Assembly (NCBI GenBank): GCA_031401755.1
Contig: JANNRU010000643.1
Coordinates: 1 to 43,940, forward strand
Reading direction: 5' to 3'
Length of the DNA stretch: 43,940 nt
DNA from: Acidobacteriota bacterium
GTDB lineage: Bacteria; Acidobacteriota; Polarisedimenticolia; Polarisedimenticolales; Polarisedimenticolaceae
Shown: piece after piece, positions 5,243 through 33,624 of the stretch
Position numbering within the stretch: position 1 is the stretch's first letter
Layout of the letters: each line of letters starts with the position of its first letter
Position numbers and translations under genes: made by a program
Notes under the pieces: generated by a model
Database searches by the model: none
The model's input: the letters and a program-made list of their open reading frames with translations, nothing else
What the model was told of the DNA's origin: nothing

Positions 5243-5632
5243 ATGGAATCAGAACAGACCACCCGCATGATCAATCGGAAACTCGTCCGGCCGAAACTGG
5301 CGGAGGTCAAGGAACGATTTGGCCCGCCACCACAACGCGGCGGAGACGGCCCGGAAGTCAGCGCGCGAGACAACACGCAGAACGGAACCGCGCCGCGAAG
5401 GCGGATGGCGCCGCCCGAGCAGACCAATGCCGAGGCGTTCTACTACCTGAAGCAGATGAACCAGCAAACGGCGATGGTCGTCGTGCTCGATGACGGCCAG
5501 AAGCTATGCGGGCACATCGAGTGGTATGACCGCTCCTGCCTCAAGGTGCATCGCGAAGGGGCACCGAACGTGCTCGTCTTCAAACACTGCATCAAGTATC
5601 TCTATAAGCAGGAAGACGAAGCCCCGTCCTGA
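5243..5632 (+). CDS. Hfq-like Sm-fold RNA-binding protein with a long basic, disordered N-terminal extension
   Basis: The C-terminal ~65 aa parallels Hfq Sm1/Sm2: MVVVLDDGQKLCGHIEWYDRSCLKV, then VLVFKHCIKYLYK (compare Hfq YKHAIST). GGAGG lies 12 nt upstream of the ATG. An alternative start is the ATG at 5267. Confidence 0.6.
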   Translation: MESEQTTRMINRKLVRPKLAEVKERFGPPPQRGGDGPEVSARDNTQNGTAPRRRMAPPEQTNAEAFYYLKQMNQQTAMVVVLDDGQKLCGHIEWYDRSCLKVHREGAPNVLVFKHCIKYLYKQEDEAPS

Positions 5633-6447: not shown

Positions 6448-7382
6448 GGCTCCTCGACCGGGCGACGATGGGCGCGCGGGTGCGCGCGCTCGTAGACCGC
6501 CACCAGGGATTCGATACCCACGTGGGTGTAGCGCTGGGTCGTCGAAAGCGAGGCGTGCCCGAGCAACTCCTGGATCGACCGAAGATCGGCTCCGGCGTTC
6601 AATAGGTGGGTCGCAAACGAATGGCGCAGCGCGTGGGGCGAGATGTGGCCCACGATCGCAGCCTCTTGCAGTCGCCGATCGAGGATCCGGCGCACGCTGC
6701 GGTCGGTCAGTCGGCCCCCGCGCAGGTTCAAGAACAACGGCTCGCCGTCGGTTCGCCCGCGCAGCGGAACCGCCGCGGCAAGCCAACGCCGGAGGGCCAC
6801 CGCGGCCTTGTCGCCGAAGGGGACTTCCCGTTCCTTCCCACCCTTGCCGGTGACGCGTAGCATGCCGCTGGCTAGGTCGATGTCACCGATGTCCAGCGAG
6901 ACCAACTCGCTGACCCGCAGTCCCGAAGCGTAGAGCAACTCGAGCAGCGCCCGGTCGCGGGTTCCCGCCGCGTCGTCTCCGACGATTCGATCGAGCAACA
7001 CGAAGATTTCGTCGACGGTCAAAGCCCGAGGGAGCCCGCGCGGCGATTTTGGCGACGGAATGCGCGCTGCTGGGCTGCTATCGATCCGGCCCTCGCGAAC
7101 CGCGTAGCGTAGGAACGAACGTACCGCGGCCAGCTTGCGCGCGGCGGAGCTGCGCGCAAGGCCGCGGCGGTGCAAGGAGGCGACGAAGCTGCGCACCGCC
7201 AGTCGGTCGATCCGCTCGGGGCCGGGCGGCGGATCGAGACCGAGTTCGACGACGAGGTGTCGCCCGAGGTCGGCCAGATCCGACGAGTAGGCAACGATGG
7301 TCCGCTGCGAGACTCGCCGTTGGTCGCGCAGGTAGTCCAGGAACCGCTCGACCGCGACGTCGAAACCCGAGCCGTCGCTCAT
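6444..7382 (-). CDS. xerC: Tyrosine site-specific recombinase XerC/XerD
   Basis: N-terminal SAM-like domain FLDYLRDQRRVSQRTIVAYSSDL. Catalytic signature LLYASGLRVSEL, HALRHSFATHLL, LGHASLSTTQRYTHV. The ATG at 7382 overlaps the trmFO stop (ATGA). Confidence 0.9.
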   Translation of the reverse strand: MSDGSGFDVAVERFLDYLRDQRRVSQRTIVAYSSDLADLGRHLVVELGLDPPPGPERIDRLAVRSFVASLHRRGLARSSAARKLAAVRSFLRYAVREGRIDSSPAARIPSPKSPRGLPRALTVDEIFVLLDRIVGDDAAGTRDRALLELLYASGLRVSELVSLDIGDIDLASGMLRVTGKGGKEREVPFGDKAAVALRRWLAAAVPLRGRTDGEPLFLNLRGGRLTDRSVRRILDRRLQEAAIVGHISPHALRHSFATHLLNAGADLRSIQELLGHASLSTTQRYTHVGIESLVAVYERAHPRAHRRPVEEP

Positions 7383-8722
7383 CCGGCGGGCTCGTACGTT
7401 CGCGGCAAATCGGCCAGCTCGAGCCAGCGGTCGACCGCCGCGAGCGCGCGTTCGGCGCGTGCGCCGTTTCGCGCTTTTTTGCCACGCGGGCCGGACGGGG
7501 GTTCGGGGAGCAGTCCGAATGCCGCGTTGGTCGGCTGATAACCCGCCGGGTCGGCGTGGGATATGTAATGACAGAGGGCGCCGAGCATGGTCTCCTGGGG
7601 AAGTTGTAACGGCACGCGCCCGGTCGCCATCCGCGCCGCGTTCAGACCGGCCAGCAGACCGGTCGCCGCCGACTCGGTGTAGCCTTCGACCCCCGAGATC
7701 TGCCCGGCAAAGAACAGCCCGGGGCGCTTTCGGGTCTGCAGCTCCGGGCGCAGGACTTCGGGCGCGTTGATGTAGCAGTTGCGGTGGATCTGTCCCAGTC
7801 GGACGAACTCCGCTCGCGCGAGGCCCGGGATCGTGCGAAAGACTCGGGTTTGCTCGGGCCAGCGAAGCTGGGTTTGGAACCCGACCATCGAGTAATGCTC
7901 GGCGGCCAGGTTGTCCTGCCGGAGTTGGACGACCGCCCACGGACGGCGGCCGTTGGCGGGATCGGAGAGTCCGACCGGTTTCATCGGCCCGAAGCGCAAG
8001 GTATCGGGACCCCGTCGGGCCATCTCTTCGATCGGCAGGCAGCCTTCGAAGAACGGCGTCTGGTCGACCTCGTGGAGCGGGGCCTTCTCGCCCGCGAGCA
8101 GGGCCGCGACGAATCCCTCATAAACTTCCCGGTCCATCGGGCAGTTGAGGTAGTCCGCACCGGAGCCCTTGCCCCAGCGCGAGGCGGCGAAGGTGATGTC
8201 TCGGTCGATCGAGTCGGCCTCAATCACCGGCGCGATCGCGTCAAAAAAGAACAGGTATTCGCGTCCCGTGAAGCGCCCAATCGCGGCGGCCAGACTCTCC
8301 GCGACGAGCGGTCCGACCGCCAAGATGACGACGTCGTCGGGTGGGATCTCGGTGATCTCGAGCCGCTCGAGCGTGATCAGCGGTTCGGCCTCGATGGCCT
8401 CGGTGACCGCGCGGGCGAACGCTTGGCGGTCGACGGCCAGAGCCGATCCTGCCGGAAGTTGGGTCTTGATGGCACAGTCGAGGATGAGCGAGCCCATCCG
8501 GCGCATCTCTTCTTTGAGAAGACCGTGGGCGGTCGAAAGCTCGACCGATTTCAGAGAGTTTGAGCAAACCAACTCGGCCAGGTCGCCAGTCCGGTGGACC
8601 GGGGTCTCGCGCACCGGTCGCATCTCGACCAGACGCACCGGAACCCCGAATCGGGCGAGCTGCCAGGCGGCTTCGCTTCCGGCCAGGCCGCCGCCCACGA
8701 CGACGACAGGACGGATCGCCAT
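7379..8722 (-). CDS. trmFO: Methylenetetrahydrofolate--tRNA-(uracil-5)-methyltransferase TrmFO (Gid)
   Basis: FAD-binding fold VVVGGGLAGSEAAWQLA, then VCSNSLKS and FFAGQISGVEGYTESAATGLLAG. The ATG at 8722 (MAIRPVVVV) is preferred over the upstream ATG at 8776. Confidence 0.9.
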   Translation of the reverse strand: MAIRPVVVVGGGLAGSEAAWQLARFGVPVRLVEMRPVRETPVHRTGDLAELVCSNSLKSVELSTAHGLLKEEMRRMGSLILDCAIKTQLPAGSALAVDRQAFARAVTEAIEAEPLITLERLEITEIPPDDVVILAVGPLVAESLAAAIGRFTGREYLFFFDAIAPVIEADSIDRDITFAASRWGKGSGADYLNCPMDREVYEGFVAALLAGEKAPLHEVDQTPFFEGCLPIEEMARRGPDTLRFGPMKPVGLSDPANGRRPWAVVQLRQDNLAAEHYSMVGFQTQLRWPEQTRVFRTIPGLARAEFVRLGQIHRNCYINAPEVLRPELQTRKRPGLFFAGQISGVEGYTESAATGLLAGLNAARMATGRVPLQLPQETMLGALCHYISHADPAGYQPTNAAFGLLPEPPSGPRGKKARNGARAERALAAVDRWLELADLPRTYEPAG

Positions 8723-8891
8723 GGCTCCTCCGCAGACGAACGCGAAAAGGATCATAGCGCAGCGTTTCCAAGGCACCGGCCACTGATGGACGGCGTTCGG
8801 GACACCGTGTAATCTCTCCGGGTCCTGAACCCGGACGAACCGGGCTCGATGGGCCTCCTGCCAACCAAAATCATCCCGGAGTGATGAACCG

Positions 8892-13130: not shown

Positions 13131-14507
13131 TTGGCTGTCGTCGACATCCCGACTCGCACGATCACGATCAAGGTCGTGTACTTCGGCTGCGCCCTCGGCG
13201 GGAAAACGACCAACCTCGCGACCCTCCACCGCTTGACCGATCCGGACGGCCACCAGGGCATGGTCTCGATCGCCACGAACGACGACCGGACCTTGTTCTT
13301 CGATCTGCTGCCGGTGGACCTCGGCCAGATTGGCGGTCTCAACGTCAAGGTCAAGCTCTACACCGTGCCGGGACAAGTTCACTACGAGTTGACGCGACGA
13401 CAGGTGCTCGGCGGTGCCGACGGCGTCGTTTTCGTCGCGGACTCGGCGCCGGAGGCGCAGAAGTCCAACGCCTGGGCGTTGGAGAATTTGCGCTTCAATC
13501 TTACCGAGCAAAAGCTCGACCCCGATCTCACGCCGATCGTTCTGCAGTACAACAAACGCGATCTCCCGAACGCCATTCCGATCGCGGAACTCGAGGCGAA
13601 TCTGAACCGTCGCGGGATTCCGCACACCGAAGGTGTGGCCACCACCGGTGTCGGCGTCGTCGATACGTTTGCCGAGATCCTCAAACGCTCGATCACGAGT
13701 GCCTGGGCCAAAGCCGGGCGCGGATCAGCCCAAGACGCCGGGATCGCCGAAAAAGTCGATCAGGCTCTCGCCATCGCGCGCTCGCGAACACCGGGTCCAT
13801 CCCAGGTGATGCGCACCGACTTCGAGAAGCGATTCGATATGGACGCCTACCGTGAAGGTGAAGCGGACCGCGGTCGCGACCGTCGTATCGTCGACCAGGA
13901 ATCGCTGCTGTCTGAATCGGTCCAGGCCAACATGATGATGGCCGAGCGGCTCGAGGGGCTGCGGAGCGCCAATGCGCTCGGCGCGCGTCGCGGCGAGATG
14001 ATGGACGCGCTGGCCAAGATCGCCCCAATGCTCGCCGACACCGCTTCGGAGACCCTGCCGCTCGGCTCGCTCAAGGTCATGCTTCACGGGGCGAAGCGCT
14101 CCGAGGGCGCCCTGTTCTTCACCAAGCCGAGAGAGCAGAGTCTGGTCGAGCGCGAAGTCGAGCCTGCCGGGCGCCACGATCCGTTGAACGCCCTCAACGT
14201 CGAAGGACTGGGAAGTCTGGCTTTCCGGTTGGCCCAGACCGCGACCGTGCGGGTGATCGATGATCTCGTCGGCGACGTGTTCTTCGCGGAGGTGCCGCCC
14301 TCCTGCCAGACGTTTGGCTCGCTGCTGATCGCACCCCTGGCCTGCGACGGAATGACGTTCGGTGCCTTGTTCGTCTACGGCCGTATCGATGAGTTGGGAT
14401 TCGACGAGACCGAGCAGCGATTCTGGGCCGCGGCCTCGAGCCTCTACGGCTTGGCGTTGCACTGGCGAGCCTTGCGCAAGAAAGTCTTGGAGTTCCAGGC
14501 TCAATGA
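13131..14507 (+). CDS. MglA-family Ras-like small GTPase fused to a C-terminal GAF-like domain (458 aa)
   Basis: Residues 1-190 match MglA along their whole length: IKVVYFGCALGGKTTNL (P-loop), DRTLFFD, LYTVPGQV, GVVFVADS, QYNKRDLP, TGVGVVDTF. The C-terminal ~160 aa are GAF-like (TFGSLLIAPLACDGMTFGALFVYGRIDELGFDETEQRFW). TTG start at 13131. Confidence 0.85.
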   Translation: MAVVDIPTRTITIKVVYFGCALGGKTTNLATLHRLTDPDGHQGMVSIATNDDRTLFFDLLPVDLGQIGGLNVKVKLYTVPGQVHYELTRRQVLGGADGVVFVADSAPEAQKSNAWALENLRFNLTEQKLDPDLTPIVLQYNKRDLPNAIPIAELEANLNRRGIPHTEGVATTGVGVVDTFAEILKRSITSAWAKAGRGSAQDAGIAEKVDQALAIARSRTPGPSQVMRTDFEKRFDMDAYREGEADRGRDRRIVDQESLLSESVQANMMMAERLEGLRSANALGARRGEMMDALAKIAPMLADTASETLPLGSLKVMLHGAKRSEGALFFTKPREQSLVEREVEPAGRHDPLNALNVEGLGSLAFRLAQTATVRVIDDLVGDVFFAEVPPSCQTFGSLLIAPLACDGMTFGALFVYGRIDELGFDETEQRFWAAASSLYGLALHWRALRKKVLEFQAQ

Positions 14508-17398
14508 TCGCGCCCACGAATCCGCTCTCGGCCGATCCCGCCGAAATCGACCCATCGGCTTCGATGGCGATCCGCGAGCTTGCTCGCTCCATCGATTCGA
14601 TCGCCGAGCGCGAAGCGCTGCTGGCGAGTCTATTCGACGGTCTGGACTCCTCGAGCGCGGTGCTCGAGTCGAGCGGCAAGATCCTCGCTGTCAACGCTGC
14701 ATGGCGCGCCGCGGTCGACCCCGGGTTGCCGTTTGGCTCGCGACTCGCCGCCGGAGACGATTACCTGACGCAGAGTCGTGTCGACGCCGCGGTCTCGGGC
14801 CCCGCGTCAGCGGTCGCGCGCATGCTCACCGCGACGACCGAGGGCCGCAATGACGAAATGCGGGTCGAATACCATGTCGACACGCAGCGCGGCTCACGTT
14901 GGTATCTGTGCCGCACCAAGCGCCTAAAGGTCGGGAACGTCGAGAGAATCCTCGTCTTGCACTCGGATGTCACCGCCTCGCGCCAGCACCAGGCCGCTCT
15001 GGAGCAGAGCGACAGACTGCATCGCCGGGCGCTCGAGCATATCGACGAAGGTTTCATCGAGCTTGACGTTCTCGGGCAGGTCTGTTTCGCCAATCGGGCG
15101 GGTCGAGAGATTCTCGGTGTGACGATCGGCGGGTTGCGCGGCGCGGAATTGAGTCAACTCGTCGGCGCCGAGAACTGCGCCAAATTCTCGAGGATCCTGG
15201 TGCGTTGCCGCCGGTCGCGACTGAAGCGTCGTCGGTTCGGGTTTCCGATCGTGAGGAAGCAAGCCGATCCCGTCGACGTCGTCGGATCGGTGACCGCGCT
15301 CGTCGACGACAGCAAGCAGCACATGGGCTATCGCGTCGTCGTTCATGACGTGTCGCGGCAGCGACGCGTGGAGCGCGAGCTGCAACGGTCTTGCCGGGAA
15401 CTTGAAGGTGCACGGAACGCTGCCCTCGAGGCCACGCGCACCAAGTCCGAGTTCGTTGCCAACGTGAGTCACGAGATCCGTACGCCGATGAACGGCATCA
15501 TCGGCATGACCGAGCTGGCCCTTGACAGTGATCTCGATGACGAGCAGCGGGACTACCTCCAGTCGGTGCGCAGCTCCGCGCTGGCCCTGCTCAAATTAAT
15601 CAACGACATCCTTGATTTTTCCAAGATCGAAGCGGGTCGAATGGAAGTCGAGCGGACACCGTTCTCGCTCCAAGAGCTGCTGGTCGAAGCACTCATGCCG
15701 TTGACGGTCCGCGCTTCGCGCAAGGGACTCGAATTGCTCTACGAGATGGTGCCAGACCTGCACCGCCAGCTCGTGGGGGATCCGAATCGCTTGCGTCAGG
15801 TCTTGATCAATCTGGTGGATAACGCGATCAAGTTCACCGGGTCCGGTGAAATCGTCGTTCGCGTCACCGTTCAGGAACGCACGGCGAGCGACGTGGTCTT
15901 GTGCATCCTCGTCGAGGACACCGGCATTGGAATCGATCCAGGCAAGCATGCGCTGATCTTCCAGTCCTTCGCGCAGGCCGACGGGTCGACCACTCGGAAG
16001 TACGGTGGAACCGGGCTGGGTCTGGCGATCTCCCGGCAGTTGGTCGAGTTGATGGGCGGTGAACTCTGGGTCGAGCCGGGCACCGTCGGCGGGAGCCGAT
16101 TCGTCTTCACCGTGCGGTTGGGCCTCGGCTACGAGCTTGCCCCGCCCCAGGGCGTCGACCCCCCGGCCGAGCTCGTCGGATTGCGAGTTCTCGTCGTCGA
16201 CGATCATTCCGCGAGTCGCGCAACGGCGCTCGAGAGTCTGCGAATCCTTGGCGTCCAAGGCGTCGGTGTCGTCTCGCTCGAATCGGCCTGGACCGCGATG
16301 CGGGCCGCCTGCGCGGCGACCGCGCCCTATGGTCTGCTGGCGGTCGACGCGCGATTGATCTCCGCCGGCGGCGAGGCGATTCTGTCCCACATCCGAGAAG
16401 ATGCCTCGTTGAGCCACGTGCCCATCGTCGTGATCACGTTGGCCGGACATCGAGAACCTGCCGGTGATTCGGCGATCAAGATCGGCGGCCTACTCACCAA
16501 GCCGTACCGCCTGGTCGAGTTGCGGGATCTGTTGCTCAGCGCGATTGGGGGTCGCACCCCGAAGCCTCTCGCGGCGCCGAAGCTGCCAGCGGAACCTAGC
16601 GCGCGTCCGCTTCGCATTCTCATCGCCGAGGACAACCGCGTCAACCAGGAGGTCGCACGACTCCTGCTTCTCAAAGCGGGTCACCGGGTCCGACTGGCGA
16701 CGAACGGGCAAGAGGCGCTCGAAGCCTTGAATCACGAATCGTTTGACCTCGTGCTGATGGACATCGAGATGCCTGGGATCGACGGGATCGCGGCGACCCG
16801 AATGATCCGTAGGCGCGACCATCATCGCCGAACGCCGATCATCGCGATTTCGGCCCACGCGATGCCCGGAGACCGAGAGCGGTTTCTCGACGCCGGAATG
16901 GACGCCTACCTCTCCAAGCCCTTCGACCATGCGGCGTTCCTCAAGCTCGTCAACGACGTCAGCGCGGGTAACGCGATCCACACCGAATCGCAGAGTGCCG
17001 CTACCGCGGACTCGAGCGCCGAACAGACGCTGCCGGTCGACGCCGCGCTGCTCTTCGAGCAGATGGGCAACGACCGGGTCCTGATCGACGAGATCACGTC
17101 CCTGTTCTACGCGGATCGCACGGAGATGATCGAGGCGTTGAGCGCGGCGATCCGCAGCCGAGTTCCCAAGGCCGTCGAGCGGGAAGCGCACAAGATCCGC
17201 AGCACCTTCAGCACGCTTGCTGCGGCGCCGGCCGCAGCGACGGCGCGATTACTGGAAGACCTGGCGTCAGGAGGGCAGCTCACGCGCGCTGGAGAGTTGC
17301 GCGACCAGATCGAGATCCAAGCCGTGGAGGTCGAAGAGGCTCTGCGGGCCTACTTCGAGTCGCACCCGGCGTTACTGGACGACGAAGTCCGAAAATAG
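14504..17398 (+). CDS. Soluble hybrid sensor histidine kinase: PAS-PAS-HisKA-HATPase-REC-REC-HPt
   Basis: The ATG overlaps the GTPase stop (ATGA at 14504-14507). I see no TM segment. H-box SHEIRTPMNGI, G1 DTGIGI, G2 GGTGLGLAIS. REC1 VLVVDDH...LLAVDA...LLTKP. REC2 ILIAEDN...LVLMDIEMPGIDG...YLSKP. HPt EAHKIRSTFSTL. Confidence 0.9.
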   Translation: MIAPTNPLSADPAEIDPSASMAIRELARSIDSIAEREALLASLFDGLDSSSAVLESSGKILAVNAAWRAAVDPGLPFGSRLAAGDDYLTQSRVDAAVSGPASAVARMLTATTEGRNDEMRVEYHVDTQRGSRWYLCRTKRLKVGNVERILVLHSDVTASRQHQAALEQSDRLHRRALEHIDEGFIELDVLGQVCFANRAGREILGVTIGGLRGAELSQLVGAENCAKFSRILVRCRRSRLKRRRFGFPIVRKQADPVDVVGSVTALVDDSKQHMGYRVVVHDVSRQRRVERELQRSCRELEGARNAALEATRTKSEFVANVSHEIRTPMNGIIGMTELALDSDLDDEQRDYLQSVRSSALALLKLINDILDFSKIEAGRMEVERTPFSLQELLVEALMPLTVRASRKGLELLYEMVPDLHRQLVGDPNRLRQVLINLVDNAIKFTGSGEIVVRVTVQERTASDVVLCILVEDTGIGIDPGKHALIFQSFAQADGSTTRKYGGTGLGLAISRQLVELMGGELWVEPGTVGGSRFVFTVRLGLGYELAPPQGVDPPAELVGLRVLVVDDHSASRATALESLRILGVQGVGVVSLESAWTAMRAACAATAPYGLLAVDARLISAGGEAILSHIREDASLSHVPIVVITLAGHREPAGDSAIKIGGLLTKPYRLVELRDLLLSAIGGRTPKPLAAPKLPAEPSARPLRILIAEDNRVNQEVARLLLLKAGHRVRLATNGQEALEALNHESFDLVLMDIEMPGIDGIAATRMIRRRDHHRRTPIIAISAHAMPGDRERFLDAGMDAYLSKPFDHAAFLKLVNDVSAGNAIHTESQSAATADSSAEQTLPVDAALLFEQMGNDRVLIDEITSLFYADRTEMIEALSAAIRSRVPKAVEREAHKIRSTFSTLAAAPAAATARLLEDLASGGQLTRAGELRDQIEIQAVEVEEALRAYFESHPALLDDEVRK

Positions 17399-20898: not shown

Positions 20899-21345
20899 GT
20901 GCTGAAAGACTTCAAAGATTTCGCAATGCGCGGGAACGTCGTCGATCTGGCGGTCGGCATCGTCATTGGTGGAGCGTTCGGCAAGATAGTCTCGTCGTTC
21001 GTCTCCGATGTGCTGATGCCTCCGATCGGTCTCGCGCTCGGCGGTGTCGACTTCTCGAACCTGTTCCTCGACCTGTCGGGGAAGGGGCACGCCACGCTCG
21101 AAGCGGCCAAGGCCGCCGGCGCGGCGACGATCAACTACGGTGTGTTCGTCAATACCGTGCTCGACTTCTTGATCGTCGCTTTCGCGATCTTCATGGTCGT
21201 CAAGGCAATGAACAGGATGAAGCGCGAAGAGGCGGCGCCACCTGCGGTACCGACCACGAAATCCTGCACCTACTGCCTGAGCGAAATACCGCTCAAGGCC
21301 ACGAAGTGCATGCACTGCACCTCCGCGCTGCAAGCGACGGCGTGA
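20899..21345 (+). CDS. mscL: Large-conductance mechanosensitive channel MscL with a C-terminal CxxC-x10-CxxC tail
   Basis: [40 protein letters not shown] and the TM2 segment [19 protein letters not shown] start 7 nt after AAGGAGG. Tail is [22 protein letters not shown]. Confidence 0.9.
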
Positions 21346-21351
21346 ATTGCC

Positions 21352-21377
21352 GCTGGGCCCCCTGCGGGGGGCCCAGC
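21352..21377. terminator. Bidirectional hairpin terminator between mscL and the HDOD gene
   Basis: GCTGGGCCCC (21352-21361) pairs with GGGGCCCAGC (21368-21377) across a 6-nt loop, in the 35-nt gap between convergent stops. Confidence 0.6.
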
Positions 21378-21380: not shown

Positions 21381-22241
21381 CTAGAAGAGCTTGCGCACCT
21401 CGATCAGCTCGTCTTCCATCTCGACCATCAGAGTCGCCAGTTCGATATCGGGGACTCCCAGCAGGTCGATCGCCGCCTCCTGTAGCAGGTCGAGGTCGGC
21501 ATCCGGACGCAGGTGCATCCCGAACTTCTGCGTGACCAGATTCGCCGCCTGGACGCAAACGAGCAGGGGATCCGAGTCCTCGTCGACCTCTTGGCGATCG
21601 ACGAGGGCCGTCCGGCAGATCGACTCCGGTAGATTCCATTTCGTCAGCGTATTGAACCCGAGCTCGCAATGCAGGGCCTCGATCAGCTCCAGCAAAACGT
21701 CGCGGGTTGCGGTCACGCCGAGTCCGTCCGACTCGAGCAGGTCCGCGCCCCGGAGAATCAGCAACTGCCCGCAATCGTGGAGCAAGCCAGCCAGGAAGGC
21801 CTCATCCGGATCGGCGTCGATGCGTGGCGCCAGGCGGCGCGCGGCGAACGCCGTCGCCACCGAGTGATCCCACAGGATGTGTTGGAAATCCTGTTTGGTC
21901 TTCAGCTCGCCACCTTGAAAATGGCCTTTCATCAGCAGTGCGGTAACGACCGACCCGACCTGCTTGAAGCCAAGTCGCGCGATCGCTTGGTTCAGGTCGC
22001 CGACCTGTCGTAGCCCGCCGAAAGCCGCCGAGTTCGCAATTCTCAGGATCTCGCCGGAGAGGGCCGGATCGCGGGAGATCAGCGCGGCGATCCGTTTGGC
22101 GTCGACATCTTCCTGGCCTAGGAGTTGGGTCAGTCGGAGCGCGAGTTCCGGGATCGGCGGCAGGCTGATCTCCCCAGCCTCGACCATCCCCCGGATGCGA
22201 TCCGAAAGAGACGACACGGTCGGTGTCACGGCCTCGGTCAT
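21381..22241 (-). CDS. HDOD domain protein
   Basis: LPPIPELALRLTQLL...IAALISRDPALSGEILRIANSAAFG...QAIARLGF, and the later AFLAGLLHDCGQLLIL. The ATG overlaps the upstream ATPase stop (ATGA at 22238-22241). Confidence 0.85.
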   Translation of the reverse strand: MTEAVTPTVSSLSDRIRGMVEAGEISLPPIPELALRLTQLLGQEDVDAKRIAALISRDPALSGEILRIANSAAFGGLRQVGDLNQAIARLGFKQVGSVVTALLMKGHFQGGELKTKQDFQHILWDHSVATAFAARRLAPRIDADPDEAFLAGLLHDCGQLLILRGADLLESDGLGVTATRDVLLELIEALHCELGFNTLTKWNLPESICRTALVDRQEVDEDSDPLLVCVQAANLVTQKFGMHLRPDADLDLLQEAAIDLLGVPDIELATLMVEMEDELIEVRKLF

Positions 22242-24514
22242 TGTTTTCTCCCCACGCGAAGCGCCGATCGGATCGATTTCAACGGCCTGGCGGCGGTATC
22301 GCGCGGCGCGTTCGTGATGATCTCGGCGATTGAAGTCAACCCCTCGGCGGCCTTGAGCAGACCGTCCTCTTGCAGCGTCAGGAACTCGCTCAAGCGTCGC
22401 GCGGAGACTCGAAGTTCCTTTGCCGCCGCTCGGTGCATGACGAGATCGCGGAATTCATCGTCGGGCAACAGCACCTCGTGGATCGCGACGCGGCCGCGAT
22501 AACCGGTACCGTTGCACTGCCCGCACCCGACGGCTACCTGAAAAGCCTGCCCACGATAGTCCTCACGCTCCAAGCCGAGAAAGCGCTGCTCAGCTCGATT
22601 CGGGTCCCCGGGCTTACGACACTGCGTGCAGAGCCTGCGCACCAGGCGCTGCGCGACCACGGCCGTTACGGTCGAAGCCACGAGAAACGGCTCAGCGCCC
22701 ATCTCGAGCAATCGCACGAAGGCGCCGACGCTGTCCTCGGTGTGAAAGGTCGAGTAGACCTTGTGCCCGGTCAGTGCCGATTCCAGCGCCAAACTGACGG
22801 TCACCTCGTCGCGAACCTCGCCGATGACGATGGTGTCCGGATCCTGACGCACGATCGCGCGAAGCGAGTCGGCAAAAGTCGGGCCGGTCTTCTGGTTCAC
22901 GCTGCACTGCACGACCCCGGGCATGACGTACTCCACGGGATCTTCGGCCGTGATCACTTTCTCGGTCGGATCGTTGGCGTGACTGATGAACGAATACAGC
23001 GTCGTCGTTTTGCCGCTGCCCGTCGGTCCGACGATCAGCACGAGTCCCGACGAGGCTTCCAGAACGATCTCGGTCAAGGAAGCAAAAGCCCGGGGTGTGA
23101 AGCCGATCTTATCGATCGGAACGATCCCCCGGCTACGGTCGAGCAACCGCAGGACCATCGTTTCGCCATGCACCGAGACGTAGCTCGACACACGGATATC
23201 GATGTCGCGACCGTCGATCCGAACGTAGATCTTTCCGTCCTGGTGCAACCGTTTTTCGGAGATGTCGCAACTGGCCAAGATCTTCAAGCGTGAGCAGATC
23301 CGCGGCGCAAACTCGATCGGGAGGTCAGTCAGCGGGATCAGCACGCCGTCGACTCGTACCCGGACGCGAAGCTTGTCTTGCATTGGTTCGATGTGTAGGT
23401 CGCTGGCGACGAGTTGCAGTGCGCGCGCAAGTAGGTAGTCCACGATCTGGACCGCTTCTTCACCGTTCTCATCCGCGTTTCCGACTTCGCCGATCTCGCG
23501 GTACTGAAGGGTGGGCGCACCGGGTTCGTCCGTGCTGCTTCCACGCAGTCGCTCGATCGTGTTCAGCGCTTCGGTGATCTTTTCCGACGGACAGAGCACC
23601 GGTGTTACCGGGGCAGAAAAGATTCTCGACAGCTCGGCGATCAGATGATCGGCGTCGGGATCGGAGAGGAAGACTTGCACCCGGCCATCGACGATCGCCG
23701 ACGGAAGAACGTTGTTACGACGCAAGTACCGCATCGACGCTCGGCCGACGAGCTCGGTATCGACGGTGGCAATCTGGGGTTCGGCGAAGCGAAGCGAACG
23801 CTTGATTGCCAGCGCCTCGAGGAACGCGGCTTCGGTGACGAGCTTACCGGTGACCAGGATCAATCGATCCGAGAAATTCGGCTCGCTCGCGCGAGTCTTG
23901 AAAAACGCCGCGACATCCTCGTCGCTGAGATGACCCTTCGCCTGCAGCAAATCGACGAGCGACAGGCATGCCAGTCGCTCGTGGGCGATCCGTTGGAGGT
24001 CGTCACGGCTCAACTCACCGAGATCGAAAAGCACCTCCGCGAGCGGTTTCGGCCGACTCAGGCGCGCTGCAACCCGCCGTGCGCGCTCGAGCTGATCCTC
24101 GGTGACCTTCCCCAGGCGACGGATCGCATCGGTCTCGTCGCGCTCCTTGCGCGATTCGATGGCCGCACCGACGCCCCTTCGCAGTTCCTTGGTATCCCAG
24201 GGTTTGGACATTATGGCCAGGTCACCCAGGTCCCGGCGCACGTCGTCGGGTACCTCGAGCTGGTCCATCCCGGTCAGCATCATCAGTGGCGTATCCGGGT
24301 GCAACTCGTGGACTCGCTTCAGCAGGGACAGACCGTCCATCCCGGGCATCATGCGGTCGGAGATGACCAGATCGACGGGTCCACGGACTAACAGTTCGAG
24401 GGCCGCCTGGCCGCTGGTCGCCGTGAGGACCGAAGTCTGCTCATCGCTGAGCAGGCCTTCGAGCGCGCCGAGTATCGCGCGTTCGTCATCCACGACTAAA
24501 ATCTTGCGGTTCAT
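22238..24514 (-). CDS. Response-regulator receiver fused to a GspE/PilB-family (T2SS/T4P-type) secretion ATPase
   Basis: REC: ILVVDDE...LVISDRMMPGMDG...MMLTGM...IMSKP. T2SSE_N-like region. Walker A GPTGSGKTTT, Asp box AEDPVEY, Walker B IVIGEVRD, His box TGHKVYSTFHT. Tetracysteine CTQC...CGQC. The ATG overlaps the csrA stop (ATGA at 24511-24514). Confidence 0.9.
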   Translation of the reverse strand: MNRKILVVDDERAILGALEGLLSDEQTSVLTATSGQAALELLVRGPVDLVISDRMMPGMDGLSLLKRVHELHPDTPLMMLTGMDQLEVPDDVRRDLGDLAIMSKPWDTKELRRGVGAAIESRKERDETDAIRRLGKVTEDQLERARRVAARLSRPKPLAEVLFDLGELSRDDLQRIAHERLACLSLVDLLQAKGHLSDEDVAAFFKTRASEPNFSDRLILVTGKLVTEAAFLEALAIKRSLRFAEPQIATVDTELVGRASMRYLRRNNVLPSAIVDGRVQVFLSDPDADHLIAELSRIFSAPVTPVLCPSEKITEALNTIERLRGSSTDEPGAPTLQYREIGEVGNADENGEEAVQIVDYLLARALQLVASDLHIEPMQDKLRVRVRVDGVLIPLTDLPIEFAPRICSRLKILASCDISEKRLHQDGKIYVRIDGRDIDIRVSSYVSVHGETMVLRLLDRSRGIVPIDKIGFTPRAFASLTEIVLEASSGLVLIVGPTGSGKTTTLYSFISHANDPTEKVITAEDPVEYVMPGVVQCSVNQKTGPTFADSLRAIVRQDPDTIVIGEVRDEVTVSLALESALTGHKVYSTFHTEDSVGAFVRLLEMGAEPFLVASTVTAVVAQRLVRRLCTQCRKPGDPNRAEQRFLGLEREDYRGQAFQVAVGCGQCNGTGYRGRVAIHEVLLPDDEFRDLVMHRAAAKELRVSARRLSEFLTLQEDGLLKAAEGLTSIAEIITNAPRDTAARPLKSIRSALRVGRKQ

Positions 24515-24732
24515 TTACCGCTTCGATCGACTGGGGGCAGACAGGGAACTGCGGATCGTGCCGCTTCGTTGACGGCCGCGATCTCGCGGTGTAGCTCCGC
24601 GCGATAGATCGAAACGTCGGGCGGGGCCTCAAACCCCAGCCGAACGATTCCCGATGAGCATTCGATGACCGTAACGCGGATCTCGTTACCGATCACGACG
24701 CTCTCGCCGAGTTTTCGTGTCAAGACCAGCAC
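24511..24732 (-). CDS. csrA: Carbon storage regulator CsrA (FliW-partnered type)
   Basis: MLVLTRKLGESVVIGNEIRVTVIECSSGIVRLGFEAPPDVSIYRAEL. GTG start 5 nt after AGGAGG. Extended C-terminus, as in the FliW-regulated CsrAs. Confidence 0.92.
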   Translation of the reverse strand: MLVLTRKLGESVVIGNEIRVTVIECSSGIVRLGFEAPPDVSIYRAELHREIAAVNEAARSAVPCLPPVDRSGK

Positions 24733-24800: not shown

Positions 24801-25211
24801 CTACACCGTCTCGGCGACCAATCTTGCGCGTAGAGGCAGTCGACGATCGTCCAGGATCACCTGCGCACCGCAGCGGCGAGCGACGTTGATGACGATCGGC
24901 GCCCGCAGATTGGCCATCGGCCCTTCGGCCTCGATAGTCGCCACCGCGAGGATCAACAGCTCGCTCGTCTCGTCGAAGCCCAGCGCATCGGCCACGCGTT
25001 GACTGAACTCCGGCCGGTAGTCCGGGTCGACGAGAGTCGGGTCGACGACCGGCAGGTTGAAACCCGGAAGATCGGTGCTGCACAGGACACGAACCGGAGA
25101 GTCCGGACGAGCCAGCAGCTGGAAGTGACGAGCCTCCGGCACGCCGATGATCCCCTCCTCGAAATGAAGCCCGCTCGTGTCGTCGTCGATCGCTATTGCC
25201 GCCAGTGTCAT
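24801..25211 (-). CDS. fliW: Flagellar assembly factor FliW
   Basis: HFEEGIIGVPEARHFQLL...LPVVDPTLVDPDYRPEF...ANLRAPIVINV, a typical FliW. It sits immediately upstream of csrA. Confidence 0.9.
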   Translation of the reverse strand: MTLAAIAIDDDTSGLHFEEGIIGVPEARHFQLLARPDSPVRVLCSTDLPGFNLPVVDPTLVDPDYRPEFSQRVADALGFDETSELLILAVATIEAEGPMANLRAPIVINVARRCGAQVILDDRRLPLRARLVAETV

Positions 25212-25214: not shown

Positions 25215-26084
25215 TCACCCCAGATAATCGAAAAGGGACCGTTGAAAGACCTTCGCCGCGCCGGCCGACAGCGCGTCGAGGGTCGTCGAGGCCGAAGTCA
25301 ATTCGAATGCCGTCTGCTCGATGTCGGCATCCTCGAGCTCGCCGATACGCAACTTCAGTCGCAGGGCCGAGTCCGCGCCGCGATCGAGCGCTTGCTCGAT
25401 CCGAACCAAGCGATCGCCGACCTCGGCGCGATTGACGCCCAGGCGATCGAGGGCATTCTTCAATTCGGGGAGCCGTGCTTCGATCGCCGCGGTGTCGTTG
25501 TCCCGCAAAGCTTGGGCCAGGTTGCCCATGAGCGCGAACAGGTCGCCGTCGGTGACGAAGATCCGCTCGCCCGACAGCGTCGTACCGACGGTCTGTGATT
25601 CGTCGATCGCTGCCTGTGCTTCGCCGTCGTTGCCGGCGTAGGCGCCACTGGCATCGAACGGCGGCGCGAGCGTTTCGGTTCCACCGAACAGATAACGTCC
25701 GTCCTGTTCGGTGTTGGACAGGAACAACAGCCGCTCGCGCAGCTGGTCGATCTGGCCCGCCTGGATTTCACGTTGCTGGTCGGAGGCCGCACCCGCTCCC
25801 AGAGCGATCGTCCGCGCCTCGCTGATCAGATTGAAGACCTCCCCCAGCGTCACGTCGATCGTATTCAACTCGAACGCGGCCGACTGCGCCGATCGCCGTA
25901 ACCCTTCGGTCCGGACGAGTCGCGCGCGCAACTCCAGCGAAGCCGCGGCGGCGACCGGGTCGTCCGACGCGTGGCGCACGCGCTTGCCGTCGCCGAGCTG
26001 CGCCAGCGCGCGATCCAACGTTCGCCGCTGGTTGCGGATGCCGCGCAGGTAGGTCTCTTGCAGGATCGCGTCACTGACTCTCAA
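25215..26084 (-). CDS. flgL: Flagellar hook-associated protein 3 FlgL
   Basis: Flagellin-like N-terminus RVRHASDDPVAAAASLELRARL and C-terminus DADIEQTAFELTSASTTLDALSAGAAKV. TTG start with GGAGAG SD. Confidence 0.85.
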   Translation of the reverse strand: MRVSDAILQETYLRGIRNQRRTLDRALAQLGDGKRVRHASDDPVAAAASLELRARLVRTEGLRRSAQSAAFELNTIDVTLGEVFNLISEARTIALGAGAASDQQREIQAGQIDQLRERLLFLSNTEQDGRYLFGGTETLAPPFDASGAYAGNDGEAQAAIDESQTVGTTLSGERIFVTDGDLFALMGNLAQALRDNDTAAIEARLPELKNALDRLGVNRAEVGDRLVRIEQALDRGADSALRLKLRIGELEDADIEQTAFELTSASTTLDALSAGAAKVFQRSLFDYLG

Positions 26085-26100: not shown

Positions 26101-27489
26101 TCAGCGCAGGTTGATTGCGGTTTCGGTCACTTCGTTCAAGACCTGGATGAAGCGGGCCGCCGCTTCGAACGCGCGCTGGAAACGGACCAGTTCGACGGCC
26201 TCCTCGTCGAGCGAGACGCCGGTGATCGAATCGCGACGGGCGACGAGCCCGTCCAGGACGCTCTCGGCGACATTGCCGGCGACATCGGCATCGGCGATCT
26301 GCCCCCCGAGGGTCGAAGCGACCTCGGCCAGAAACTGCGCGGGCGTCCGGTTCCCCAGTGCGGCCGAGGCGGTCGTCTGCAACCGAGAGAGCTCGACCGC
26401 TAGCGCGCCGTCACCCGGCGCACCGTCGGCGGAGATGGCCAGCAACGAAGGATCGGCGACGACTTGTGAATTGACGACGATCGATCGCGCCGCACCCGTG
26501 GCCGGAGCGGGGTCCGGGTCGAACAGGGGGACCCCCGTGGATCCGTCTAGGGCCGTTCCAGATGTGGTCAGTGCGTTCGCGCGCGTGATCAGATCGGCGG
26601 CCAGGCGATCGAGCTCGGCCAATCGAGCGGGAATCGCGTCGTCACGCACGGACAAAAGAGCGCCGAGCTTACCTCCACGCAGGCGACTGGTGATGATTTG
26701 ACCATCGGGGCCCTTAAGCTGGAGGATGCCATTGGCGTCACGGGTCTTTCCGAGTGGAAAAGCCGTGTCGGCGTTGACCAGTGTCGTACCCGACGGCAAC
26801 GAGAACAGGACGCGGCTGCCGTCGGCCGAAGTTGCGCTGCCGCCGGTCAGCTCGACCAGGGACTCAACGACCACTTGCCGTTGATCGCGCAGCGGCGCGG
26901 CCACCGCTCCATCTGCCTCCTCGGAGAGGATGCGTCGATTCAGCGCGGCGAGATCGTTCGCCAGCCGGTTGATCTCGCCGGTCAGTTGCTCGATGCTCCC
27001 GTCTTCCGCGCGGCGCTGGTCATCCAGTCGCGTGTAGGTGTCGCGGATCTGGCGCGTCAAACTTTCGGCCGAGGAGACCGCGGATCGGCGCAACGCCGGA
27101 CTCTCGGGTGACGAGGCCAGGTTGCCGAACGCATCGGTGAACCCGGCCCAGGCTGAGGCGATCCCATCACCGTCGAGCGAGCCAAACGTCGCCTCGATCT
27201 CTTGCAGCCCGCGCAGGCGTTCGCGCGATCCGGATAGATTGCCGCGCTCGCGCTCGAGGGTGACCTGCAGGAATCGATCCTCGGCCCGGCGGATCCGTGC
27301 GACCTCGACGCCGCTGTCGAGAAAGCCGCCCTGCACGCGGACCAGGAATCCAGGGGTCAGGTCGACACGGCGTCGGGCGTAGCCGGGCGTCGATGCGTTG
27401 GCGATGTTGTCGCCGGCGACCTGCAGGCCGATCCGCGCCGCGCTCAGCGCGCGGGTCCCGAGGTCGAAATAGGAAAAAAGACCGCTCAT
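26101..27489 (-). CDS. flgK: Flagellar hook-associated protein 1 FlgK
   Basis: N-terminus GLQVAGDNIANASTPGYARRRV. C-terminus VSLDEEAVELVRFQRAFEAAARFIQVLNE. The ATG overlaps the flgN stop. Confidence 0.9.
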   Translation of the reverse strand: MSGLFSYFDLGTRALSAARIGLQVAGDNIANASTPGYARRRVDLTPGFLVRVQGGFLDSGVEVARIRRAEDRFLQVTLERERGNLSGSRERLRGLQEIEATFGSLDGDGIASAWAGFTDAFGNLASSPESPALRRSAVSSAESLTRQIRDTYTRLDDQRRAEDGSIEQLTGEINRLANDLAALNRRILSEEADGAVAAPLRDQRQVVVESLVELTGGSATSADGSRVLFSLPSGTTLVNADTAFPLGKTRDANGILQLKGPDGQIITSRLRGGKLGALLSVRDDAIPARLAELDRLAADLITRANALTTSGTALDGSTGVPLFDPDPAPATGAARSIVVNSQVVADPSLLAISADGAPGDGALAVELSRLQTTASAALGNRTPAQFLAEVASTLGGQIADADVAGNVAESVLDGLVARRDSITGVSLDEEAVELVRFQRAFEAAARFIQVLNEVTETAINLR

Positions 27490-27905
27490 ACGCGTTGCCT
27501 CAAGCGGAGACCGTCGACCCGCGCCTCCTGGGCGCGGCCCGTCGGACCGTAGGTTTCTTCGGTCCCGTGGATCAACTCGATCAGTCGACGATTGATCTGG
27601 ATCAGGCGCGCCAGCAGCGCACCGTCGATCGCGGTCGAACGTGCGAGATCGGTCAAGGTCTGATCGAGGCGCGTTCGGGCTGCGCGCAACTCATCGAGGT
27701 CGCCCGCAGGTGCGCGACCGAATTCGGCAGCGAGCAACTTCGATTCGAGCGCCAGCGTCTCGAGGCGCGCCGTCACGCCGTCGATCGCGTCGGCATCCCC
27801 GTTACGCAGGGCGGCGCGCATCTGGCGATCGAGCTCGGCCGCCCCCACAAGGCGGCGGCACAGCTCATCGACGAGCCTCGCCCGGGGGCGGGCTCCGTCT
27901 GCCAT
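27486..27905 (-). CDS. flgN: FlgN-like flagellar export chaperone
   Basis: 139-aa helical protein in the flgM-flgN-flgK position, with a heptad-like Leu pattern (LDRQMRAALRNGDADAIDGVTARLETLALESKLL). The start at 27905 lies 1 nt after the flgM stop. An alternative ATG is at 27923. Confidence 0.55.
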   Translation of the reverse strand: MADGARPRARLVDELCRRLVGAAELDRQMRAALRNGDADAIDGVTARLETLALESKLLAAEFGRAPAGDLDELRAARTRLDQTLTDLARSTAIDGALLARLIQINRRLIELIHGTEETYGPTGRAQEARVDGLRLRQRV

Positions 27906-27906
27906 C

Positions 27907-28203
27907 TCAGCGGACGAGGCCATCCTCGAACTCCACCAGCGACTCGGCGACCCGCTTCGGATCGACTCGATAGGTTCCGTCGGCGAGCGCGTGCTTGAGC
28001 TCTTCGATACGCGATTCGCGGATCTCGGGAAGCTCGCGCACCCGATCGACGAGGGACTTGATTTGTCGTGCGCTTTCCGAAAGCTCGAGGCGGTCGGCCG
28101 CCTCGCGGCGCTTGGAGTCGACGGCTGCCGGCTGGGACTCGCGCCCCGGGGCTTTACCTGATCGCTCCGCTCCTCCGGGTCCGCCAATCGGTTCAATGGC
28201 CAT
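27907..28203 (-). CDS. flgM: Anti-sigma-28 factor FlgM
   Basis: 98 aa with a disordered N-terminus. C-terminal FlgM signature IEELKHALADGTYRVDPKRVAESLVEFE. The ATG at 28203 has a GGGAGG SD. Confidence 0.85.
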   Translation of the reverse strand: MAIEPIGGPGGAERSGKAPGRESQPAAVDSKRREAADRLELSESARQIKSLVDRVRELPEIRESRIEELKHALADGTYRVDPKRVAESLVEFEDGLVR

Positions 28204-29026
28204 TCTTGTTGCCTCCCTCGTTCTTTTTATCGGCCGGCGACCCGAGAACTTGAGTGGCCAGTGGGCCTGGGGCGGCGAACGCCGGGTCCGCATTTGCCCC
28301 GTTTTTTCGAGCTTCGAAGTGCAGATGGGGCCCGGTCGCCCGGCCGCTCTGTCCGACCTTACCGAGCGCCTGTCCGCGCACGACCCACTGCCCCTCGCTC
28401 ACGTCGGCCCCGGAAAGGTGCGCATAGCGGGTCCGCCAGCCCTGCGCGTGCTCCAGCTCGATGAGCAAGCCGTAGGAGCCTCGCGGACCGACATCGACCA
28501 CGCGGCCGGGCGCAATCGCCAGCACCGGGGTTCCGGTCGGGGCCGCCAGATCGACTCCGGCGTGGAAGCGGCCACGGCCGTCGATCGGATCGTTCCCCCA
28601 GCCGTAGCTGCGGGAGATCCGGGGCGGAGAGGCCGCCGGCGACGCCGAGCCTAGCCCGTCCGAGGCGGCCGTGGCAGTTTCGTAGGCGTTGCGTGCGCGA
28701 AGCCCGTTCAGCCGCTCGAGTGCCGGCTCGACCTCGCTCCCACGCCCACGGGTCCACTGCTCTTCGAGCAACTTTGCGATTCCGAGGGGCGAGCGCTCGG
28801 CGACCGATTCTCCCAGATGCTGTTCGAACAGGCCGTCGTAGATCGCAGAGCCGGTACCTCCGCCGAAAAATCCCTCCTCGAGCTGGGCTTCGCGCATCCG
28901 CGAGATCAAGGTCTGGAGGAACAACGACTCGAAGGCGCGCGCCGCCTGACGCAACGCGAGGCGCTCGGACGAGCCGTTGTCGGCGCCCGGAGCGAGTCGA
29001 GTGACGGCGAGCGACGTCTCGCTCAC
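28193..29026 (-). CDS. flgJ: FlgJ-type rod-binding protein fused to an M23 (LytM-type) peptidase domain
   Basis: Rod-binding domain AARAFESLFLQTLISRMREA...SAIYDGLFEQHLGESVA. M23 domain HAGVDLAAPTGTPVLA...GLLIELEH...YAHLS...SGRATGPHLHFE. GTGA overlap with the flgI stop. Confidence 0.85.
   Translation of the reverse strand: MSETSLAVTRLAPGADNGSSERLALRQAARAFESLFLQTLISRMREAQLEEGFFGGGTGSAIYDGLFEQHLGESVAERSPLGIAKLLEEQWTRGRGSEVEPALERLNGLRARNAYETATAASDGLGSASPAASPPRISRSYGWGNDPIDGRGRFHAGVDLAAPTGTPVLAIAPGRVVDVGPRGSYGLLIELEHAQGWRTRYAHLSGADVSEGQWVVRGQALGKVGQSGRATGPHLHFEARKNGANADPAFAAPGPLATQVLGSPADKKNEGGNKNGH
28227..28253 (-). promoter_or_regulatory. Sigma28 (FliA)-type promoter of flgM, embedded in the 3' end of flgJ
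   Basis: The minus strand reads TCAAGTTCTCGGGTCGCCGGCCGATAA (TCAA-N15-GCCGATAA). The -10 box ends 23 nt upstream of the flgM ATG. Confidence 0.65.
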
Positions 29027-33282: not shown

Positions 33283-33624
33283 TCATCGACCCACCGAGCG
33301 CGCCCGGGCGGACTGTTCGGCGCGCTCGGCTTCGAGGATCCACTCGTCGAGTGCGCGTCCGCTCATCGGGGACTCGCTGCGCTTGCGCCAGCGCGCGACG
33401 CGCGCAGCCAGATCGGCCTCACCGCGCGAGCTGAAGTCGTCAGCAGACGTTGTCGATGGCGTGGGCATCGAACGTTCGTCGACGAGTAGCGATGCAGCCG
33501 GCGAACCAACCGATCGACGTCGACGGAACACCACGCGCGAACGCGAGGCCAGCCAGAGTGCGATCGCGAACAAGTTCGCGATCGCCAGCCCGACGAGAAA
33601 CCGGGGTTCCGTGAGTAGGTTCAT
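33283..33624 (-). CDS. Single-pass membrane protein of unknown function in the position usually held by fliO
   Basis: TM segment FLVGLAIANLFAIALWLA, then an Arg-rich, low-complexity tail. The ATG overlaps the fliN stop (ATGA at 33621-33624). The FliO core motif is not recognisable. Confidence 0.55.
   Translation of the reverse strand: MNLLTEPRFLVGLAIANLFAIALWLASRSRVVFRRRRSVGSPAASLLVDERSMPTPSTTSADDFSSRGEADLAARVARWRKRSESPMSGRALDEWILEAERAEQSARARSVGR

Follow-up and report, generated by a model that had tools for sequence, protein, structure and literature searches.

ATPases of the PilB/GspE type are seen as the motors of pili and secretion systems, and canonical pilB and gspE genes normally lie near genes for partners of the platform, pilin and secretin type. 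The fliW and csrA genes are placed at the end of a late flagellar operon in Bacillus subtilis. The subject of this study is a pair of genes behind fliW-csrA in the 43,940-nt contig JANNRU010000643.1 of an Acidobacteriota bacterium (assembly GCA_031401755.1), here called the window, which denotes the whole stretch analysed and to which all coordinates refer unless another locus is named. The pair encodes a PilB/GspE-type ATPase with a fused receiver (REC) domain and a stand-alone HDOD protein. The parts are all of known kinds; what is new is the pairing of the ATPase with HDOD, the independence of the pair from pilus and secretion genes, the fusion of the ATPase-type N-terminal region (N-region) to HDOD, and the capture of the pair behind fliW-csrA in one lineage.

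With PilB, Thermus PilF and GspE, the window ATPase shares the fold, the domain order (MshEN-type N-region, N2, C-terminal ATPase), the zinc motif and all catalytic boxes. Unlike them, it scores under the curated cutoffs, is never found by platform, pilin or secretin genes, and has a His box of its own and an HDOD partner, some members carrying an N-terminal REC. Its N-region resembles MshE (PMC5013675) and the GSPII domains of PilF (PMC11731258) in having helix-turn-helix repeats followed by an MshEN_C subdomain, but differs from MshE in containing neither the strict nor the relaxed cyclic di-GMP (c-di-GMP) motif and in having 3.5 repeats instead of two. The REC-MshEN-T2SSE architecture is not new in itself, because REC was already named among the domains co-occurring with MshEN (PMC5013675). 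A receiver and an HD-type output as a unit are also found in the REC-HDOD and REC-HD-GYP regulators (GsmR, MmoQ with structure 3LJX, RpfG/NosR type), to which class the window REC is nearest; in the window, however, REC and HDOD are on separate polypeptides, with a complete ATPase between them in gene order.

The window HDOD protein is comparable to the small HDOD proteins SadB, PSPTO_4229, PFL_0554/PFL_5871 and Cj0248, which have genetic effects on swimming, and effects of stand-alone HDOD proteins on swimming have been reported repeatedly from other bacteria (PMC11813219, PMC11004494). The similarity is at domain level only, and no partner of the PilB/GspE type has been reported for the SadB-type proteins. 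SadB itself, in which most pocket histidines are missing, is a protein adaptor without ligand binding (PMC12075610). With the FliW-CsrA checkpoint operon the window shares the order flgM-flgN-flgK-flgL-fliW-csrA and a sigma-28-type promoter-like site, but the window operon runs on by two genes. In a full-text literature search, HDOD occurred with GspE or PilB in no paper beyond one incidental co-mention, no paper joined fliW, csrA and HDOD, and no publication on the ATPase-HDOD pair was found, which agrees with an earlier note on this DNA, whose author knew of no described function for the arrangement.

We propose, with a probability of about 0.5, that the pair is a self-contained regulatory ATPase-sensor module that was recruited to late flagellar expression, in which the HDOD protein docks on the N-region and whose output is related to motility. 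The evidence that carries this proposal is the conservation of the pair across loci. Protein searches returned relatives of ~755 aa with a receiver (45–63% identity) and many of ~640 aa without one, which were equally similar over residues 128–758. The gene contexts of nine of these homologues were examined; a genome-collection scan with one narrow N-region pattern derived from 7 sequences gave 2 loci, and a metagenome search for the His box specific to the family gave 80 more, the latter being the main source of the pair statistics. Linkage was counted over the 81 independent loci with at least 600 nt of downstream sequence, in their gene neighbourhoods.

An HDOD gene was found immediately 3′ of the ATPase gene, on the same strand, at 73 of the 81 loci, the two genes overlapping by 4 nt in 31 of 72 cases and being 0 to +4 nt apart in 27 others. 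The eight exceptions without an adjacent HDOD gene are among the more distant ATPases. In a rough neighbour-joining tree, with E. coli GspE and HofB as the only outgroups, the HDOD-linked ATPases formed a clade of their own with the HDOD-less ATPases outside it, among them L076, L077 and L081 of the eight exceptions; L075 was also placed outside. Clustering of 688 flanking open reading frames (ORFs) revealed no third recurrent neighbour, and a Pfam search with 149 neighbours from 23 long-flank loci gave at most 3 members per family, all of them housekeeping. Because HDOD adjoins the ATPase this regularly and nothing else recurs, the conserved unit is ATPase plus HDOD and not csrA plus ATPase. 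The earlier note was right in seeing HDOD co-packed with the ATPase, while its treatment of HDOD as an appendage does not fit a near-invariant partner. Members of the family occur in Acidobacteriota, Gemmatimonadota, Eisenbacteria and Desulfobulbales, a cultured Desulfopila among them, and relatives in Terriglobia metagenome-assembled genomes (MAGs) are 53–57% identical. Judged by sequence, the HDOD-linked ATPases are an old orthologous group of their own across several phyla.

Relatives of GspC, GspD, GspF, GspG, GspH, GspK, GspL, GspM, GspO, HofC and PpdD were absent from all of the ~90 loci when searched by phmmer with E. coli queries. In the window, no pilin, platform, secretin or prepilin peptidase was detected by Pfam on the ~45 called ORFs, by phmmer with E. 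coli Gsp/Hof/Ppd queries, or by a six-frame scan for the prepilin motif. The designation of the ATPase as an 'orphan' without pilus or type II secretion system (T2SS) genes in the 44 kb was thus borne out, and it extends to the loci of the family.

Linkage to csrA, in turn, is a feature of one clade. The order csrA then ATPase was found at 4 independent loci only (the window, L001, L007/8 and L012), so that the linkage to fliW-csrA, the lack of which the earlier note had named as telling against its reading, is not conserved outside that clade. Within it, the arrangement is maintained down to ~50% protein identity (L007), and at L001, L007 and L008 the window order fliW-csrA-ATPase-HDOD is followed by motA-motB-fliL. 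At L011, from a Terriglobia MAG, the ATPase of the pair has no receiver and the pair faces fliW-csrA in convergent orientation; at L006 it is a fliE-fliK cluster that the pair faces in this way; and at L002–5, L009 and L010 no flagellar genes are nearby and HDOD is still 3′ of the ATPase. In the Acidobacteriota-type clade, 8 loci have flagellar or stator genes next to the pair, in several arrangements (the pair behind csrA, facing csrA or fliE-fliK in convergent orientation, or directly 5′ of motAB); in the Desulfobulbales-type clade (~45 loci) none has.

The best available evidence on how the two proteins might work together comes from a fusion family, which suggests that HDOD acts physically with the N-terminal regulatory region of the ATPase. 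Protein P0327 (548 aa, L094 8001–9647) is a fusion of MshEN and HDOD without an ATPase. Its residues 33–226 matched the family N-region profile with 96.5 bits over profile positions 4–196; by the same profile a genuine Desulfopila member reached 116.6 bits, and the N-termini of E. coli GspE and HofB gave no match. Fusions of the P0327 type were found on at least 4 contigs, located by PilZ and HD-GYP-type genes, and a split two-gene version (P0396 and P0399) is present on another contig. No direct ATPase-HDOD fusion was found among the best matches of three large searches. P0364 (964 aa), a candidate for such a fusion, was dismissed, its N-terminus being low-complexity acidic sequence. Other fusions among the close HDOD relatives were DUF4388-HDOD (P0344, P0359, P0366) and Ser/Thr-kinase-HDOD (P0338).

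The HDOD partner is a strong match to its Pfam family (PF08668, 156 bits against a cutoff of 22.9), with a separate HD Pfam match, and its matches in the PDB were led by 3M1T (78 bits), with 3HC1 (71 bits) and MmoQ (3LJX) among the others. Of 1.84 billion representative proteins searched, 34,527 matched at E ≤ 0.001, of which 97 had E ≤ 1e-30; nearly all were stand-alone proteins of ~280 aa. In 3HC1, two iron ions are held by five His and one Asp (PMC12075610), and the six corresponding ligand columns of the HDOD partners are all His or Asp in that structure. The family ligand set (H126, H155, D156, H191, H215 and H216 in window numbering) was complete in 58 of 72 partners. The window protein itself reads H-H-D-H-D-R: H126, H155, D156 and H191 are kept, D215 and R216 replace the two histidines, and the conserved lysine K159 is a glutamine. 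With two histidines lost, the pocket of the window HDOD is incomplete, as in SadB. Incomplete pockets were found at 6 of 9 REC-bearing loci and at 8 of 63 others (Fisher p = 0.001, kinship being ignored). At several related loci a second, divergent HDOD gene is located on the opposite strand just past the pair (L020 3421–4353, L021 6235–7191, L023 4370–4972 and L025 3257–4792, all on the minus strand).

As for the ATPase, its T2SSE domain (PF00437) was matched with 359.8 bits (2e-107), and the boxes GPTGSGKTTT, EDPVEY, DTIVIGEVRD and TGHKVYSTFHT are present in the window protein and invariant across the family. The tetracysteine zinc motif, like the catalytic boxes, was invariant in 50 sequences; such a motif is typical of assembly and not of retraction ATPases. 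We assign the protein, by its sequence features, to the assembly-ATPase branch of the T2SSE superfamily, and intact motifs and fold predict a catalytically competent hexameric motor of the PilB/GspE superfamily. The AlphaFold2 (AF2) model, with a mean predicted local distance difference test (pLDDT) value of 87.3, consists of a (beta-alpha)5 receiver (pLDDT 84–96), the helix 108–135, seven MshEN-type helices at 139–238, an alpha/beta MshEN_C subdomain, a disordered linker at 326–348 and a PilB-like core. In Foldseek, the core superposed on the Thermus PilF and Geobacter PilB cores with a template modelling (TM) score of 0.93, at identities of 43% (PilF) and 41–42% (PilB). The scores with the equivalog models were below the cutoffs for both GspE (TIGR02533, 465.4 bits against 630.25) and PilB (TIGR02538, 433.6 bits against 675.65), and the TfpB, ComGA and PilT models scored lower still than PilB, so that the window ATPase is under every NCBIfam equivalog cutoff; no curated NCBIfam model covers the group. 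The His box specific to the family is TGHKV[FY]STFHTED. In an outgroup lineage without an HDOD partner, a REC-GGDEF gene lies directly 5′ of a 1017-aa MshEN-T2SSE ATPase (L076 6994–11653, plus strand), which has a C-terminal extension of ~390 aa without a Pfam match.

The N-region was recognised as MshEN (PF05157) with 41.9 bits against a cutoff of 23.1 (1e-10). Compared with the PDB, its family profile showed canonical MshEN at ~181–320, aligning with MshE (5HTL) and with the N-domains of PilB and PilF, and extra repeats at 128–190 aligning to PilF residues 308–382, which makes 3.5 repeats against two in canonical MshEN. The c-di-GMP motif consists of two tandem 24-residue units, RLGxxL(L/V/I)xxG(L/V/I/F)(L/V/I)xxxxLxxxLxxQ, with a 5-residue spacer, and a relaxed form has also been defined (Wang et al. 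2016, PMC5013675). In the window ATPase no match to either form was found; its best 24-mer (157–180) agrees with 9 of 11 motif positions. Among 110 relatives the relaxed motif was absent in 106 and the required tandem pair was found in none. A role of the N-region as c-di-GMP receptor was rejected at the level of the sequence motif.

The window REC is closest to the NosR-type REC-HD-GYP regulator (NCBIfam, 105 bits), followed by NtrC (62 bits), its PDB match being 3hv2. REC is an optional N-terminal addition that is scattered across several sub-branches of the Acidobacteriota-type clade, most family members being without it. All five receiver residues are intact in only 11 of 32 REC-type N-termini, and the acceptor position is Glu in L007 and in the P0050/P0053/P0076 group. 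For this protein the earlier note thus read the letters correctly: the full secretion-ATPase core was recovered with all quoted motifs in the translation, the receiver is complete, and the repeats recall the MshEN c-di-GMP motif without matching it, family-wide. Its idea of phosphorylation control is tenable for the window, where REC is intact, but is lineage-specific and does not carry over to the family.

Mechanistically, an ancient two-gene module would have entered a late flagellar operon of the sigma-28 type at its 3′ end, and the HDOD protein would be made in step with the ATPase through translational coupling. It would dock on the MshEN-like N-region as a regulatory or sensor subunit, in the place that is held by c-di-GMP in MshE and PilB. 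The HDOD metal pocket is the probable point of signal entry in most lineages, because the five-His-plus-Asp set like that of the 3HC1 di-iron site is kept. In the window lineage the signal probably enters by phosphorylation of the fused receiver, because there the pocket has decayed and an intact receiver of the HD-GYP/HD-coupled type is fused. Being catalytically intact, the ATPase must act on something; ATP hydrolysis would then do work on, or signal to, a partner encoded away from the pair. In the flagellum-linked clade the output is probably motility-related, which is the best guess because the pair would be expressed with late flagellar genes and because HDOD proteins have motility phenotypes elsewhere (PMC11813219, PMC11004494). 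That the pair would act specifically on the FliW-CsrA checkpoint or the export gate is pure speculation.

Several points weigh against this proposal. Motors of the PilB/GspE type normally need a membrane platform, and the window ATPase retains an N1-like domain, which is compatible with a distant platform. The putative contact between ATPase and HDOD is deduced from the order of the genes and from a single fusion family, itself without an ATPase, and the apparent link between REC presence and pocket loss comes from few related lineages, in counts that ignore kinship. The candidate sigma-28 promoter is a consensus match only. As most of the family has no flagellar linkage, the ancestral or general output may be other than motility. 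Finally, the putative role as a module is read from sequence and model.

The main rival, which we hold to be unlikely but serious, is that the protein is a genuine type IV pilus or T2SS assembly ATPase whose partners are encoded elsewhere, with HDOD and REC as accessories like PilZ/FimX on PilB and with an operon position that coordinates flagella with pili. The full PilB-type architecture, including MshEN_C/N1-like, N2 and C-terminal domains and the zinc motif, argues for it, as do the closest solved structures, PilF and PilB, and the labels 'PilB' or 'GspE/PulE family' that relatives bear in the sources; moreover, the neighbourhood counts given above leave room for partner genes at a distance. 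This reading has to contend with ~90 loci of which none is near pilC/gspF, pilM, secretin, pilin or prepilin peptidase genes, with scores well under the PilB and GspE equivalog cutoffs, and with an old multi-phylum orthologous group that has its own His box and its own partner. Less probable still is that the position behind csrA is a historical accident, in which a generic module landed between the flgM operon and motAB and is read through without a tie to motility. Most loci have the pair in unrelated housekeeping contexts, 4-nt overlaps are the default junction in the cluster, and co-transcription with csrA is not required, because the L011 pair is convergent with csrA. However, flagellar or motor adjacency survives several rearrangements within the clade, the csrA-ATPase order persists over the divergence seen in L007, and the motility phenotypes of HDOD proteins recur elsewhere (PMC11813219, PMC11004494).

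It is highly improbable that HDOD is a metal-dependent phosphohydrolase acting on a nucleotide signal, with the ATPase regulated by, or supplying, substrate or product in a small-molecule turnover system. The 58 partners with a complete five-His-plus-Asp set placed as in the 3HC1 di-iron site, together with the conserved lysine and the HD Pfam match, would suit such an enzyme, but HDOD domains have been reported to be without phosphodiesterase activity (PMC6543031). In addition, the window copy and several lineages have lost at least 2 ligands and kept both the gene and its coupling, which implies that catalysis cannot be the conserved role of HDOD here. Returning to the regulatory module, its boldest version holds that the pair is a cytoplasmic signal-transducing motor of a class not recognised so far, i.e., an ATPase freed of the pilus or secretion machine and gated by the HDOD pocket or, in the window lineage, by receiver phosphorylation, which in the flagellum-linked clade acts directly on the flagellar apparatus or the FliW-CsrA checkpoint. 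We regard this version as very unlikely; if it were true, a molecular partner and a mechanism would be defined for HDOD for the first time. As a signalling domain HDOD is very common, and it recurs in motility screens; the pairing and the fusion offer a concrete, testable partner for it. The pairing further points to a signalling function of some 'orphan' secretion ATPases, and the fliW-csrA-linked lineage, under its sigma-28-type promoter, would provide a natural read-out (swimming, flagellin level) for the role of the module.

The features of the locus are collected in Table 1. Upstream of the pair and on the same strand lie fliR, flhB, flhA, flhF, flhG, fliA, fliM, fliN, an ORF, flgF, flgG, flgA, flgH, flgI, flgJ, flgM, flgN, flgK, flgL and fliW, with fliW and csrA adjacent at the end of the late flagellar operon, as is the arrangement of the FliW-CsrA module; no flagellin gene was found within the window. 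The promoter-like element reads TCAAGTT-N-GCCGATAA from 28253 to 28227 and would, by its consensus match, be a sigma-28 promoter; upstream of flgM in L001, L007 and L011 a CTCAAGT..(G/A)CCGAT element is retained. The csrA and ATPase genes share an ATGA at 24511–24514 (GGT AAA TGA / ATG AAC CGC), and the ATPase and HDOD genes another at 22238–22241 (AAA CAA TGA / ATG ACC GAG). Overlaps of 4 nt are the default junction of the window's flagellar cluster (11 of the 22 junctions listed) and are a mark of tight operon packing, nothing unusual per se. The hairpin behind HDOD has an 11-bp G+C-rich stem and is likely a bidirectional terminator.

A scan from flgK to the HDOD stop, limited to sigma-70-type promoter and intrinsic-terminator consensus, revealed no sigma-70-like promoter and two weak terminator-like sites, which is below the number in shuffled sequence; no internal element of these two kinds was found by which the pair would be uncoupled from csrA. 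Read most simply, the genes flgM-flgN-flgK-flgL-fliW-csrA-ATPase-HDOD form one late operon, which would be co-transcribed up to the hairpin. On these matters the re-reading of ORFs and junctions reproduced the earlier note exactly (csrA, ATPase and HDOD joined by two ATGA overlaps, a strong hairpin 3′ of HDOD), the uncoupling element that it had named as telling against it did not appear, and packing and gene order support its view of three genes packed as one unit at the end of the late flagellar operon.

Table 1. Coordinates of the ATPase-HDOD pair, the ATPase domains and the late flagellar genes in the window
Feature	Position	Strand	Details
Sigma-28-type promoter-like element TCAAGTTCTCGGGTCGCCGGCCGATAA	28227..28253	-	pattern scan; ~25 nt 5′ of flgM start
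flgM (anti-sigma-28)	27907..28203	-	98 aa; Pfam FlgM 1.5e-17
flgN-like chaperone	27486..27932	-	148 aa; Pfam FlgN 4e-07, 31.0 bits vs cutoff 30.5; L001 has it in the same position
flgK	26101..27489	-	Pfam FlgK_D1 3e-47
flgL	25215..26084	-	Pfam Flagellin_N 1.5e-10; post-flgK position kept in L001, L007, L011
fliW	24801..25211	-	Pfam FliW 9e-29, 100 bits
csrA	24511..24732	-	73 aa; GTG start, AGGAGG Shine-Dalgarno; Pfam CsrA 7e-22; TIGR00202 72.0 bits vs cutoff 70.1
ATPase gene	22238..24514	-	758 aa; Pfam Response_reg 5–112, MshEN 241–324, T2SSE 355–733
ATPase residues 1–107, REC domain	24194..24514	-	D9, D10, D53, T81, K104 intact; Pfam Response_reg (PF00072) 3e-21, 76 bits
ATPase residues 108–135, long connecting helix	24110..24193	-	AF2 model
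ATPase residues 136–325, family-specific extended MshEN-like region	23540..24109	-	seven helices, then alpha/beta MshEN_C; candidate HDOD-docking region
ATPase residues 349–758, N2 and C-terminal ATPase domains	22238..23470	-	Walker A, Asp box, Walker B, His box TGHKVYSTFHTED, Zn motif C629/C632/C664/C667
HDOD gene	21381..22241	-	286 aa, stand-alone; Pfam HDOD 27–212 (1e-45)
Hairpin, G+C-rich	21352..21377		common to convergent HDOD and mscL; 61-nt fold −36.9 kcal/mol, z = −5.1

Within the flagellar cluster, an ORF of 113–126 aa without a Pfam match (33283–33624, minus strand) lies between fliN and flgF, with counterparts in the same position at L001 960–1328 and L007 1302–1682; it is possibly an undescribed flagellar component. 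The flgJ gene (28193–29026, minus strand) encodes a rod-binding domain with Peptidase_M23 in place of a glucosaminidase domain. At L001 (13469–13495) and L007 (13501–13527), sigma-28-like sites were found directly 5′ of motA, just past the HDOD gene, so that the stator genes of these loci seem to own a late promoter.

A hybrid histidine kinase gene (PAS-PAS-HisKA-HATPase-REC-REC-Hpt; 14504–17398, plus strand) is located 4 kb from the pair and is, on proximity alone, a candidate phosphodonor for the ATPase receiver; a similar kinase is present in L001. It shares 4 bp with the gene for a GTPase-GAF protein (13131–14507, plus strand; 458 aa), the N-terminal half of which is weakly similar to small GTPases (Arf/Ras-like) and the C-terminal half of which is GAF. 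Homologues with 54–58% identity were found at every flagellum-linked locus with enough flank (L001 18549–19967, minus strand; L007 16142–17629, minus strand; L011 8475–9905, plus strand), at L011 immediately 5′ of the ATPase-HDOD pair on the same strand, and the GTPase-GAF protein may be a member of the same motility neighbourhood. A 98-nt tRNA-Pro called by ARAGORN at 14417–14514 (plus strand) lies inside the GTPase-GAF/kinase coding junction and is almost certainly a false positive; Rfam gave no match in the window for any family (riboswitch, CsrA sponge RNA and others). Assignment of the region to a defence system was rejected, as PADLOC gave only P-loop or HD fragment matches of 17–23 bits.

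Among the remaining genes of the window, a XerC/D-type recombinase (6444–7940, minus strand) has an N-terminal extension of ~190 aa and is followed by ~950 nt (7941–8891) without a called gene, and an Hfq-like protein (5243–5632, plus strand) has an N-terminal extension of ~65 aa. The product of mscL (20899–21345, plus strand) ends in a C-terminal tail with two cysteine pairs (C-x2-C, then C-x2-C) that resembles a small zinc ribbon.

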